The notes under the pieces: model-generated
Database searches by the model: none
Told to the model about the DNA's origin: nothing
What the model saw: only the letters and a program-made list of their open reading frames with translations
Shown here: positions 21,323 to 29,699 of the stretch, piece by piece
Position numbering within the stretch: position 1 is the stretch's first letter
How the letters are laid out: each line of letters opens with the position of its first letter
Program-made: the position numbers and the translations under genes
Origin: Candidatus Omnitrophota bacterium
Lineage (GTDB): Bacteria; Omnitrophota; Gorgyraeia; Pluralincolimonadales; Pluralincolimonadaceae
Reading direction: 5' to 3'
Length of the DNA: 51,225 nt
Assembly: GCA_028716565.1 (NCBI GenBank)
Contig: JAQUPL010000009.1
Location: 1-51,225, forward strand

Positions 21323-21334
21323 AATTCACCCCCT

Positions 21335-21367
21335 ATTCTACATATCCGCCGACACTAATTGACATAA
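21335..21367 (-). promoter_or_regulatory. bipartite motif copy 1 (TTATGTC-N15-ATATGTAG-AAT)
   Basis: Same spacing in five copies. Confidence 0.7.
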
Positions 21368-21600: not shown

Positions 21601-21615
21601 GTAAAAACCCCCCCT

Positions 21616-21648
21616 ATTCTACATATCGATTGACTCAGGTTGACATAA
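21616..21648 (-). promoter_or_regulatory. bipartite motif copy 2
   Basis: TTATGTC aacctgagtcaatcg ATATGTAG aat. Confidence 0.7.
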
Positions 21649-24584: not shown

Positions 24585-24598
24585 AGCTTAACCCTCCT

Positions 24599-24631
24599 AT
24601 CTTACATATCGATTGACTCAAATTGACATAA
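24599..24631 (-). promoter_or_regulatory. bipartite motif copy 3, just downstream of a small terminator-like hairpin
   Basis: TTATGTC aatttgagtcaatcg ATATGTAA gat. Confidence 0.7.
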
Positions 24632-27444: not shown

Positions 27445-27575
27445 ATAACACCCCCTTATTAAATTCTTGGCCTGATAGGCCTACTGCTGGGCGCAAAGCG
27501 CTCAGGCGGCAGTGAAGACATTACATCTTCTGCCCCGTTCTACGCCTTGTGCCCAGAGATAGGGTATCAGCAAGG

Positions 27576-27917
27576 CTACGCCGCACAGCGTGCAAATAGC
27601 GCCTTCATCTTCTTGATTTGGCTCCTGTCATACCCTTCACAATACTGATTGAGGTTGACCGTGATACCCTTCGGAAGGGTATCAGGATTTTTAAAAACAC
27701 GTTCCGCATTGTACATCTGAGAACCACCCTGTTTCTTCACGGGCTTGAGCGCAATCACGACGCCCCGATAAGTGAGGTACTTGTAAACCTCGTCCTTGCC
27801 GGATCTCGCCCTCTTCTGCGCTTCAATCTGGTCACTGCATTGTTTGCAGTATCCAGCTTTAACGCCCATTGCAACTGGGCGGGACTCGCAGATGATACAC
27901 TTCCTTCGTTCTCTCAT
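27576..27917 (-). CDS. zinc-finger basic protein
   Basis: SD AAGGGGG; CIIC..CKQC. Confidence 0.6.
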   Translation of the reverse strand: MRERRKCIICESRPVAMGVKAGYCKQCSDQIEAQKRARSGKDEVYKYLTYRGVVIALKPVKKQGGSQMYNAERVFKNPDTLPKGITVNLNQYCEGYDRSQIKKMKALFARCAA

Positions 27918-27999
27918 CGCGAACCCCCTTATTCAATTTTAGTGTTCTTGAACCTGTTGAAAGCCTTAACCGAAGTCAAGGCCTTCCGCAGTGCCAAGA

Positions 28000-28830
28000 A
28001 TGACACAGCGCCCCCTAATCATCAGAGGGGGACTGTCTCACGATACAGAACCTAATGAAAGTCCTTTGACCGCTTGAGCACGACCGTCTAGGACTGCTAA
28101 AGACGGGTACTTCCCTTATCGGTCGGGGTCTTAAGGGCTTGCTACCGCCCACGTCTACTCCGTTTGTCCTATACTCACTGTGAACCCTACAGAGCCTCTA
28201 CATGAGGGTATAGGAGCGAGTAAAGGGCTTCGCAGACCGCACCCCATCCTCTTGGTTGGTGGGGGAAATCCACCACAGCCGTATAAGGGCGCATCGTGCC
28301 CTATCCCTACCGCTTTAAGGAAGGGTAGAGGATATGTACCACTCCTCGACGTTTTAGCGACTCGTCGTGCGTCGGGTCTTTTTGTTGATTTAGGCCAACA
28401 AGTCCCCGTGTCTTAGCCGTTTCGCATAGTACCAGCCTATACGCACGTGCAGGCAAGCAACACGGCTACCTGCCTATACCTAGTCCTTATCCCCGCCGGC
28501 GCAGCTCCACCGTAGAACCCCTAGATAGGCATCAGGGTTGCGATCGGCGGGTGTCCCAACGTATAGCCCCAGGGTTAGCATGAAGTCCTAAGTCCCCCGT
28601 CATAGAGACCAGCCCGCAGGTGGTGACATTCCGGGCTTAGGATCGTCGTCCCCTGGATCAAGGGACGATGGGATGAGACTCTTGAGCCTAACGGCTCATA
28701 GATGGCTATATGCGTTGCAATTGATTCACTTACGCCTATCCCTATGGGATAGAATGCCTTAATTAAGATTTGCGCAAGCTATCAAAGGTCGCATATAGCC
28801 ATCTATCAACCGATAGACGTTTGCATTGCT
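28000..28830. ncRNA. large highly structured non-coding region, candidate long ncRNA(s)
   Basis: No credible ORF; at least 12 hairpins including a 17-bp perfect IR (28698-28714/28790-28806) and GUGA and UAAC tetraloops. Confidence 0.55.
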
Positions 28831-28833
28831 CCT

Positions 28834-28866
28834 ATACTACATATCGCAGGAGCATAATCGACATAA
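28834..28866 (-). promoter_or_regulatory. bipartite motif copy 4, pointing into the structured region
   Basis: TTATGTC gattatgctcctgcg ATATGTAG tat. Confidence 0.7.
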
Positions 28867-28895
28867 TAAAGCGGTAGTCCTATTGACTACCGCTT
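28863..28895 (-). terminator. intrinsic terminator after the sigma-like gene
   Basis: 11-bp stem AAGCGGTAGTC/GACTACCGCTT followed by TATTAT on the minus strand. Confidence 0.7.
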
Positions 28896-28918
28896 CACTA
28901 TACCGTTTTGTGCCGTCT

Positions 28919-28951
28919 ACTATACCTATCGACTAGGCATAATTGACATAA
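28919..28951 (-). promoter_or_regulatory. bipartite motif copy 5, overlapping the 3' end of the sigma-like gene
   Basis: TTATGTC aattatgcctagtcg ATAGGTAT agt. Confidence 0.6.
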
Positions 28952-29616
28952 GTGCTATACTCTGTGAGTATATTCGGGCGTGATGCAATCCATCGGCGCA
29001 TTATGCTTTGTTCTAGTTTGGAAGTCGCATATCCAGACAATCTCTTATTTACGATGGACTGTATATGCTTTGGTAGTTTGTTATATAGCAACCTTGCGTC
29101 TATACGTGCTTCACACTCTATTTCCCCCATAAGCAATTCCGAGTGATATGCCATGCGGTCGATAGCATCTTGACCGTAGTTTCCGCCGTCTTCTGCATCC
29201 GCCATACGTTCAATAGAATCTAGGTTGTATTGGCTATGTAGTTTGAAGGCCTTCCAAAAATCCTTCCAATCACATCTAGCTATAGCGTAAGCCAATTTCT
29301 CATCCTTTACACGTTTTGTTAATAGTGTAAGTGATAATTCTTGCATTAAGTCGGCGCGTTCCTCCTTCGGCGCTTTGCGACTGAAGATATACGCATATTT
29401 GAGCGCTATGCGTTGTTCTCTTGGGAGTTTGTTTATCTGCTGTAGAAATTCGTTGACGTGTCCTTCGAATTCCCCTTCAATTTGTATAGCACTGGAAAGC
29501 ATTTTTGCTATGCTTCTATAGGTTGTATCGTGCTTTTGGATTGCCTCCGGTTGTGCTTTGAAGGCCGTTTTTAACTCTGTTTTTGTTGCTTTGCGACTGA
29601 TAACCTTGCTATTCAT
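28933..29616 (-). CDS. RNA polymerase sigma-factor-like protein (ECF/group 3-4-like)
   Basis: ERADLMQELSLTLL and AYAIARCDWKDFWK resemble region 2 (EDLxQE, W/Y..IARN...D..R); LYNKLPKHIQSIVNKRL resembles the region 4 entry; region 4 HTH looks degenerate. Confidence 0.5.
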   Translation of the reverse strand: MNSKVISRKATKTELKTAFKAQPEAIQKHDTTYRSIAKMLSSAIQIEGEFEGHVNEFLQQINKLPREQRIALKYAYIFSRKAPKEERADLMQELSLTLLTKRVKDEKLAYAIARCDWKDFWKAFKLHSQYNLDSIERMADAEDGGNYGQDAIDRMAYHSELLMGEIECEARIDARLLYNKLPKHIQSIVNKRLSGYATSKLEQSIMRRWIASRPNILTEYSTYVNYA

Positions 29617-29699
29617 TTTGATACCCCTTTTTTTAATTTTTGATACGTTCGAACCTGTATTCAATTGTGTTTTCCGTCGGAGCACCTCCCATATCAAAA

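Follow-up and report, generated by a model that had tools for sequence, protein, structure and literature searches.

A family of large, pseudoknotted RNAs absent from Rfam 15, carried by 38-51 kb mobile elements from anaerobic habitats

The stretch of DNA analysed here, 51,225 nucleotides of a contig assigned to a Candidatus Omnitrophota bacterium (JAQUPL010000009.1) and referred to below as the window, contains an ORF-free gap of ~1 kb at positions 27918-28932. The gap lies between two minus-strand genes, which encode a protein of 113 amino acids on the downstream side and one of 227 amino acids on the upstream side (Table 1). It almost certainly encodes a member of a family of large, highly structured RNAs that is absent from Rfam 15 and would be read from the minus strand, in the sense orientation relative to the flanking genes. 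Its members fold into three domains of several helices each, with over 30 helices that covary and two pseudoknots, and the sequences of loops and junctions are strictly conserved.

Both neighbouring genes accompany the RNA in related elements. The downstream protein carries a CxxC...CxxC zinc ribbon at its N terminus, followed by a basic linker and a C-terminal part rich in beta structure (AF2 pLDDT 72); all four cysteines are invariant and basic residues are present. An orthologue of 101-127 amino acids is found directly 3′ of the RNA in each of the 42 distinct loci with enough sequence. Searches with this protein returned no match in Pfam, PHROG or PDB sequences and no significant fold match, the top hit, the phi28 gp11 packaging ATPase (E=0.065, TM 0.31), being treated as noise. 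The upstream protein is all-helical and has 49 homologues in a collection of 5.8 billion proteins, many of them encoded on contigs of 38-51 kb. The succession of upstream gene, ORF-free gap of 740-1100 nt and gene for a protein of ~110 amino acids was seen in nine of the nine loci inspected. A reading made earlier from the letters of the DNA, here called the sequence-only reading, had described the upstream protein as sigma-like. This description is not upheld: among 25 members, only three matched Sigma70_r2 and r4_2, at E ~0.02 and below the cut-off, the family profile found nothing in the PDB at E<=1, and a Foldseek search with the AF2 model (pLDDT 72) returned no sigma factor, with a best E-value of 1.5.

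The carrier element encodes a DNA polymerase III beta-type clamp, a tyrosine integrase, DUF5131, DUF5661 and beta-helix proteins, and little else that is recognisable; in relatives, a clamp-loader-like ATPase is also present. The family as a whole occurs on mobile elements of 38-51 kb from anaerobic habitats, whose contigs were binned with Dehalococcoidia, Portnoybacteria and Methylococcales, and the carrier is probably extrachromosomal or viral. The GC skew of the window turns at ~16 kb and at 39-40 kb. A primer RNA at an origin, comparable to ColE1 RNA II, was considered and rejected, as these turning points (~16 and 40 kb) do not fall at the RNA.

Homologues were collected with a scan pattern taken from the most conserved block of the RNA, in domain III (GGCTGTGRTGN{3,6}CCCCCAN{3,7}CAAGAG). 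The scan yielded 4 loci in species-representative genomes and 60 in JGI metagenomes, 62 of these 64 being true members. L012 and L022 are chance pattern matches, with only a marginal nhmmer match of 99 nt (E=8e-4). A core profile built from 44 homologues recognizes 73 of the 75 loci examined as family members and matches the window once, on the minus strand (28676->27945, E=1.2e-124). The core measures ~730 nt in the window and 637-767 nt in the homologues. Removing duplicated and truncated entries left 45 distinct sequences of full length, 47-84% identical to the window; the 44 true sequences used below are these 45 minus L012. A shorter pattern, GGCRGTAGCAAGNCCC, gave at least ~200 loci in genome and viral contigs, all of them chance matches, since the family nhmmer profile matches none. 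Family members come from landfill, wastewater, groundwater and sediment, and runs from wastewater, groundwater and sediment include contigs that match parts of the gap at 85-95% identity. In two landfill samples (runs X1 and X2), 82-100% of the sampled words of the element were present. In IMG/VR, the domain III pattern found 0 loci and neither neighbour protein has relatives; blastn at a distant setting against phage and plasmid collections, including INPHARED, gave no match to the RNA.

Across the three closest relatives, the columns of the gap are on average 88% identical, and long invariant blocks persist to relatives whose flanking proteins are only ~42% identical. A conserved reading frame is absent, as the 44 homologues share neither the strand nor the frame nor the position of their longest open stretch. 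Known RNA families are not recognized either. Scanning the whole window with Rfam 15 at the gathering threshold gave 0 matches, and a permissive scan (E<=10) of 27700-29100 returned nothing but a chance match to RT-12, at 16.5 bits against a threshold of 44.2 and outside the core. A permissive Rfam scan of 15 homologue loci produced no consistent weak match, and the search for tRNA and tmRNA genes found none. No description of the family was found in Rfam 15 or in the papers searched, the candidate viral and phage structured RNAs of PMC10690425 aside.

The evidence for an RNA structure comes from covariation. From the 44 true sequences, RNAalifold derives a consensus with 35 helices and a total of 177 nested pairs. 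On alignment A3, the nested pairs are standard in 90.6% of cells, as against 75.6% in column shuffles and 37-47% when the 3′ partner is slid by 1-3 columns; 130 pairs are changed on both sides, with 1176 such cells versus 370 in the shuffles, a level reached in 0 of 500. A scan for complementary column stacks crossing the nested structure revealed two pseudoknots, PK-A and PK-B. With both included, the structure has 174 pairs and 91.1% of cells are paired (75.4% in shuffles, 36-46% with slid partners). The examination of covariation in collected homologues, which the sequence-only reading had proposed as a check, came out positive: compensatory changes occur at 129 of these 174 pairs, with 1213 double-change cells against 377 in shuffles, and again 0 of 500 shuffles reach the observed value. 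Base pairs are kept by compensatory substitutions beyond what shuffled and slid controls yield, as is characteristic of a structured RNA. The alignment is a MAFFT alignment and not structure-based, and some of the weak helices (70-80% paired) may be wrong.

Table 1. Features of the locus, with positions in the window given in the 5′ to 3′ direction of the RNA where strands of helices are listed.
Feature	Position	Strand	Description or basis
Upstream gene	28933..29616	minus	227-aa all-helical protein; directly 5′ of the RNA
Motif copy 5	28917..28931	minus	CGATAGG-TATAGT-AG; directly 3′ of the upstream-gene stop codon (28933-28935)
Terminator-like hairpin after motif copy 5	28856-28908	minus	
Motif copy 4	28832..28846	minus	CGATATG-TAGTAT-AG; likely RNA promoter
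Variable 5′ leader	28683..28827	minus	Start near 28827 inferred from promoter motif
Conserved RNA core	27945..28676	minus	nhmmer profile, covariation, strand test; sole copy in the window
Domain I	28673-28554	minus	Closing helix 28673-28669/28558-28554
Domain I, 9-bp helix	28644-28636/28592-28582	minus	Consensus structure
Domain I, short helices	CCC/GGG 28635-33/28615-13; GUC/GAC 28609-07/28601-599	minus	Consensus structure
Domain I, conserved junction	28582-28572	minus	CAUGCUAACCC
Domain II	28551-28492	minus	CCCGCCG/CGGCGGG 28551-45/28498-92; loop forms PK-A
PK-A (pseudoknot)	28530-28525 (GCCUAU, domain II hairpin loop) with 28477-28472 (AUAGGC)	minus	Covariation
PK-B (pseudoknot)	28598-28593 (GGGGGA, domain I) with 28032-28027 (UCCCCC), 560 nt downstream	minus	Covariation
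Central helix	28465-60/28411-06	minus	Carries variable insertion
Central hairpin	28400-28395/28388-28383	minus	Nearly invariant loop (G)CCUAAA(U)
Variable stretch	28380-28302	minus	Subgroup-specific hairpins
Domain III	28301-28076	minus	Best conserved, multi-branched; helices 19-31, four-way region
Domain III, invariant segment	28280-28249	minus	GGCUGUG...CCCCCA...CAAGAG
Domain III, hairpin	28150-28135	minus	GGGC-GGUAGCAA-GCCC
Hairpin H33	28000..28041	minus	GC-rich; CCCCCUC 28031-25 / UAGGGGG 28017-11, extended by ACAG/CUGU
Final stem	27946..27999	minus	24-27 bp; ends ~17 nt before the downstream-gene RBS
Downstream gene	27576..27917	minus	113-aa protein; RBS AAGGGGGU at 27929-27922; ATG at 27917

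The leader contains an element of ~110 nt, closed by the inverted repeat 28688-28714/28790-28816, which is found only in the window and in one other locus (L001) and is an indel relative to three others (L002, L003 and L005). The leader hairpin UGAGCC/GGCUCA at 28698-28683 (helix 1) is 80% paired, with covariation. In domain I, helices 2-6 are 86-96% paired with changes on both sides in most pairs, while the two central helices, 14 and 15, reach 92-94% with five of six pairs covarying in each. Domain III has two long closing helices, of 8 and 10 bp. Towards the 3′ end, hairpin H33 is 93.6% paired, its apical pairs covary and its energy ranges from -13 to -25 kcal/mol; the long final stem (helix 33/34) shows changes on both sides in 23 of its 24 pairs, with 90.7% of cells paired. 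As regards the pseudoknots, PK-A is 94% paired with compensation at five of six pairs (e.g. GC17 UA10 AU8). PK-B is 98% paired; its flanking pair covaries (UA32 AU5 CG5 UG2) and the rare internal changes of its G/C run are compensated.

Part of what the sequence-only reading had said about the folding of this region agrees with the comparative structure. The region is free of ORFs, no conserved frame existing in the 44 homologues, and its dense pairing goes far beyond chance as judged by the shuffled and slid controls. Four of the helices it had drawn recur in the covariation-supported structure: the one proposed at 28257-62/28270-75 as GGUGG/CCACC at 28255-28276, the CCCGCCG/CGGCGGG closure in domain II, the hairpin at 28611-28637 as 28633-28635/28613-28615, and the hairpin at 28684-28697 as GAGCC-GUUA-GGCUC at 28683-28698. 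A fifth, the local hairpin at 28287-28301, is replaced by long-range covarying helices (28301-28294/28083-28076 and 28290-28279/28122-28112). Compared with its extent of 28000-28690, the core (28676-27945) reaches slightly farther at the 3′ end. The suggestion of a large, densely structured RNA on the size scale of GOLLD and ROOL is borne out, as is the remark that no family could be assigned, the Rfam scans being without a match.

The question of the strand had been answered differently by that reading, which placed the RNA on the plus strand, antisense to all flanking genes. As Watson-Crick helices look alike on both strands, the strand was judged from wobble pairs. In GU-blind, strand-neutral folds of the family, the non-Watson-Crick cells comprise 359 G·U on the minus strand versus 126 A·C, a ratio of ~3:1. 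The GU-blind fold of the plus strand gives the mirror count, 121 G·U versus 368 A·C, and even when G·U is allowed on the plus strand, A·C cells (445) still outnumber G·U (397). Of the pairs of the consensus structure as projected onto the window, 137 are Watson-Crick, 18 are G·U when read on the minus strand and 4 are A·C. The wobbles had been described as G-U on plus and A-C on minus; the reverse is found, both in the window and in the family. Folding energies point the same way, with consensus values of -285.6 kcal/mol for the minus and -237.1 kcal/mol for the plus strand and single-sequence minima of -281.2 and -252.2 kcal/mol, respectively. Comparison with dinucleotide shuffles, also suggested beforehand as a check, gives a z-score of -3.81 for the minus strand, which favours a structured RNA, and only -1.67 for the plus strand (20 shuffles), which speaks against the strand originally proposed. 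The G·U/A·C bias, together with the orientation of the promoter motif, indicates that the RNA is probably a minus-strand transcript, like all flanking genes; the counts, the consensus energy and the z-scores contradict an antisense RNA. With the RNA on the minus strand, the two motif copies near its 5′ end (copies 4 and 5), taken earlier to be convergent with it, lie upstream in the sense orientation and are likely promoters.

The window has this motif, CGATWNGTANNNTAG, at 21333, 21614, 24597, 28832 and 28917, invariably on the minus strand; ~1.65 occurrences would be expected by chance, and five were reached in 3 of 100 shuffles. It holds a -10-like TAnnnT (TAGAAT, TAAGAT, TAGTAT, TATAGT), and a TTATGTC(A/G)A-like element lies ~18 nt upstream in at least four of the five copies, those at 21333, 21614, 28832 and 28917. 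The copies at 21333 and 21614 each stand immediately ahead of a small gene's SD and ATG, which fits a promoter. In at least 24 of 42 homologue loci, the strict motif is present in the sense orientation 385-660 nt upstream of the anchor, with 0 antisense occurrences in the region scanned; the remaining loci have looser variants in the alignment. In the proposed mechanism, the RNA would be transcribed from this bipartite promoter motif of the element (copies 4 and 5), would share its transcript with the downstream zinc-ribbon gene, and would be delimited at its 3′ end by the terminator-like hairpin and the stem of 24-27 bp. This combination of own promoter, co-transcription and 3′ delimitation is likely.

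Two small metatranscriptomes hold contigs of relatives that overlap the RNA, with direction absent, low depth and possible DNA carry-over. The first contig takes in 28065-28316 as well as the boundary to the downstream gene; the second, 99% identical to L033:540-779, covers the promoter region and the 5′ end of the RNA, and the runs matching L033 are mostly DNA-like. These contigs demonstrate no more than the presence of such sequences in RNA libraries.

At the 3′ end, a run of five C residues is common to H33 and PK-B and can pair either locally or with the G-run 560 nt upstream. Because the two helices share these five residues and both covary, they must represent alternative states or form sequentially. 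H33 is directly followed by UUUU(A/G) in most homologues, which gives it a terminator-like appearance. Of 38 distinct sequences, 11 have at least five U residues within the 8 nt after H33, compared with three in the window; termination at H33 is therefore doubtful in the window's own subgroup, where the U-tract after the hairpin is weak. These U residues double as the 5′ strand of the long final stem. The 3′ module might operate in one of two ways: H33 would gate transcription into the downstream genes, or the co-transcript would be cleaved within the long stem, where RNase III-type processing is plausible by analogy. The choice of the C5 run between PK-B and H33 may couple correct global folding to 3′-end formation or read-through.

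As to function, the explanation preferred overall, and on balance a plausible one, is a large structured minus-strand RNA with its own promoter that is stable and works as a ribonucleoprotein with the zinc-ribbon protein. An elaborate tertiary fold acting as RNA is argued from the size, the invariant loops and junctions, and conservation that extends to relatives with flanking proteins only ~42% identical. A stable and compactly folded molecule of this kind would act at the RNA level during early or replication-module expression of the element, most likely as a ribonucleoprotein with the co-located basic zinc-ribbon protein. The partnership itself, for which the evidence is synteny, is a first choice made tentatively. 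It is ranked first because the constant association with a zinc-ribbon protein that is small and basic is reminiscent of OLE RNA and oapA; profile and fold searches with the protein revealed no recognisable RNA-binding fold.

The main rival is a giant cis-regulatory leader of the attenuator or riboswitch-like type, in which a G-run displayed by the folded 5′ domains would capture the C5 run (PK-B), block H33 and gate read-through into the downstream genes. Mutually exclusive helices that both covary would be well explained in this manner, as would a GC-rich hairpin followed by UUUU in most homologues, an RNA that in every locus immediately precedes the same gene in the same orientation, and a metatranscriptome contig spanning the 3′ end of the RNA and the start of that gene. 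Against this stands the size: known cis-regulators measure up to ~300 nt, and no precedent is known for a sensor of 640-770 nt with ~30 helices and invariant loops. Moreover, the U-tract is weak in the window's subgroup, pairing in the 24-bp stem places a further constraint on its U residues, and no ligand or signal is suggested. Such a leader is an unlikely, if still serious, explanation. The genes to be gated under it would be the zinc-ribbon gene and the ~12-kb co-directional block behind.

A protein-independent RNA, either a new ribozyme or an RNA-only multimer of the ROOL/GOLLD type on a mobile element, appears rather improbable. ROOL and GOLLD are phage-associated. Both are large RNAs described as homo-oligomers by cryo-EM (10.1101/2024.12.08.627333). 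The size, the pseudoknots and the strictly conserved unpaired nucleotides of the present RNA are likewise typical of an intricate tertiary structure; inspection of the alignment, however, showed no palindromic hairpin loop that would suggest multimerisation through kissing loops, no Rfam ribozyme model is similar, and there is no substrate or exon context, both flanking genes being intact. Still less probable, to a degree that makes it very hard to maintain, is that the conserved gap is not an RNA at all and represents a DNA-level element (origin, packaging site or binding-site array) or a decayed protein gene. Such an element could be expected in an intergenic position of a mobile element beside repeated motifs, but it would not account for compensatory changes in more than 120 pairs or for the G·U strand bias, no conserved frame exists, and the turning points of the GC skew lie elsewhere. 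Finally, an RNA transcribed from the plus strand, in antisense orientation to its neighbours and converging with the motif copies, profits from the strand symmetry of Watson-Crick helices, which lets the plus strand fold as well (still -237 kcal/mol by alifold), but scarcely survives the ~3:1 preference for minus-strand G·U in GU-blind folds, the excess of A·C even with G·U allowed, the weaker z-score and the 0 antisense motifs in the 800 nt scanned, which lie on one side and not where a plus-strand RNA would begin.

A broader reading is possible, though speculative: the RNA would be a new class of large ornate RNA, comparable to OLE, GOLLD and ROOL, serving as an RNP subunit or a ribozyme peculiar to an undescribed lineage of 38-51 kb elements, with its fold read out through the competition between PK-B and H33. 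The element lineage would be virus- or plasmid-like and belong to uncultivated anaerobic bacteria.

To our knowledge, few bacterial or phage RNAs longer than 500 nt have an architecture proven by covariation, namely rRNA, group I/II introns, RNase P, tmRNA, OLE, GOLLD, ROOL, HEARO and raiA, and each of these large RNAs has either opened up a ribozyme or RNP mechanism or posed a problem that is still open. The present family adds a large RNA with unusually clean evidence, in the form of 45 diverse sequences, more than 120 compensated pairs and two pseudoknots. Its fixed gene neighbourhood supplies a candidate protein partner, the competing helices PK-B and H33 are directly testable in vitro, and at ~240 kDa the RNA is an obvious target for cryo-EM. 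In addition, it provides a nucleotide marker for mobile elements that are widespread yet unannotated in the communities of landfill, wastewater, groundwater and sediment.

Several known systems share part of these features. Transcription attenuators, riboswitch expression platforms and the cis-acting antitermination RNAs HK022 put and EAR resemble the window RNA in having a shared segment that pairs upstream or in a terminator-like hairpin 5′ of genes. The window RNA is 5-10-fold larger than any of these elements, and its competing upstream strand is 560 nt distant, the resulting pseudoknot involving an internal loop of domain I. Group I/II introns and RNase P RNA have in common with it the size class, the multi-domain layout and the long-range pseudoknots, whereas there is no Rfam match and no interrupted host gene, and inspection by eye showed no domain V-like or P4/P7-like signature. 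GOLLD (RF01998) and ROOL (RF03087), like the window RNA, measure 580-800 nt, have many covarying helices and pseudoknots and were discovered by comparative genomics; they differ in that neither is matched through Rfam, even at E<=10 on 1.4 kb, that no tRNA genes lie near the window RNA, and that its family is absent from the copies of IMG/VR and INPHARED searched. OLE RNA (RF01071) is an ornate, operon-embedded RNA of ~600 nt found in anaerobes, whose biochemical function long remained unknown and whose gene is directly followed by that of its binding protein, oapA. Rfam scans revealed no match to OLE in sequence or structure; its host is a Firmicutes chromosome and its neighbour a membrane protein, whereas the window RNA resides on a mobile element of 38-51 kb beside a small, soluble-looking zinc-ribbon protein. 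The family is placed among the large ornate RNAs of bacteria or mobile elements, a kind that is itself loosely defined.

A shorter variant of the RNA, ~640 nt long, occurs at three of the related loci (L010, L011 and L038), which lie on elements of ~40 kb. Its match to the nhmmer profile built from the RNA core is restricted to profile positions 206-685; domain I is reduced, domain II is absent and domain III is kept. Pseudoknot PK-B, which joins a G-run to a C-run of the RNA, is also retained and shows a doubly compensated change (GGGAGCUC/GAGCUCCC/GGGGAGCU).

Both G5 runs of the RNA have the same sequence as the usual Shine-Dalgarno of the element (AAGGGGGU), which is found at a further site and, in a looser version, at another (see table). 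It is conceivable that the G5 and C5 runs act by SD/anti-SD mimicry or by sequestering the downstream RBS, two proposals on which covariation is uninformative since all of these runs are invariant.

Features of the window
Feature	Position	Strand	Remark
Promoter-like motif	21333-21347	minus
Promoter-like motif	21614-21628	minus
Promoter-like motif	24597-24611	minus
Promoter-like motif	28832-28846	minus
Promoter-like motif	28917-28931	minus
G5 run	28598-28594		within RNA; invariant
G5 run	28015-28011		within RNA; invariant
C5 run	28031-28027		within RNA; invariant
G5 of downstream RBS	27927-27923		invariant
Usual Shine-Dalgarno	27450-27465
Looser Shine-Dalgarno	29623-29638
~110-nt element	28688-28816
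Zinc-ribbon protein	27576-27917	minus	downstream
All-helical protein	28933-29616	minus	upstream

The promoter-like motif, present in five copies, is bipartite, with a TTATGTC(A/G)A-like element followed after ~18 nt by CGATWNG-TAnnnT-AG. Small CxxC-rich genes lie next to the copies at 21333 and 21614, with their Shine-Dalgarno (GGGGG) and start codon adjoining the motif; a 21-nt repeat, AATAACGATAACTTATGTCAA, precedes each of these genes.

Directly after the promoter motif, most homologues carry a hairpin followed by a U-run (AAAACAAGCCUCGA...UCGAGGCUUUGUUUU), located 5′ of the RNA core in columns 76-175 of the homologue alignment A3 (L019, L020, L026, L033, L041, L045, L063 and L065, among others). 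The sequence of its 5′ arm, AAGCCUCGA, is repeated downstream of the hairpin in most homologues, so that two alternative pairing partners would be available to the 3′ arm. The arrangement may represent a 5′ attenuator; alternatively, it may be the upstream gene's terminator, with a promoter embedded in it. The ~110-nt element of the window, closed by a 27-nt inverted repeat, is found only there and in L001, while a short hairpin takes its place in L002, L003 and L005; it is thus a variable insert of the 5′ leader, outside the conserved core.

The upstream protein is all-helical and conserved in 49 homologues. Its proposed ‘sigma-like’ identity failed every sigma test tried; the Pfam sigma match is marginal (3/25 members), and neither a PDB profile search nor Foldseek returned a match for this protein. 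The small, basic zinc-ribbon protein downstream is strictly syntenic with the RNA (window and 42 loci); its top Foldseek match falls short of significance (phi28 gp11 packaging ATPase; E=0.065, TM 0.31).

Contigs of the element family (window and L001-L075) cluster at 38-51 kb, and the bins that hold them are assigned to Dehalococcoidia (three contigs, two MAGs), Portnoybacteria and Methylococcales. The carrier element is probably extrachromosomal or viral.
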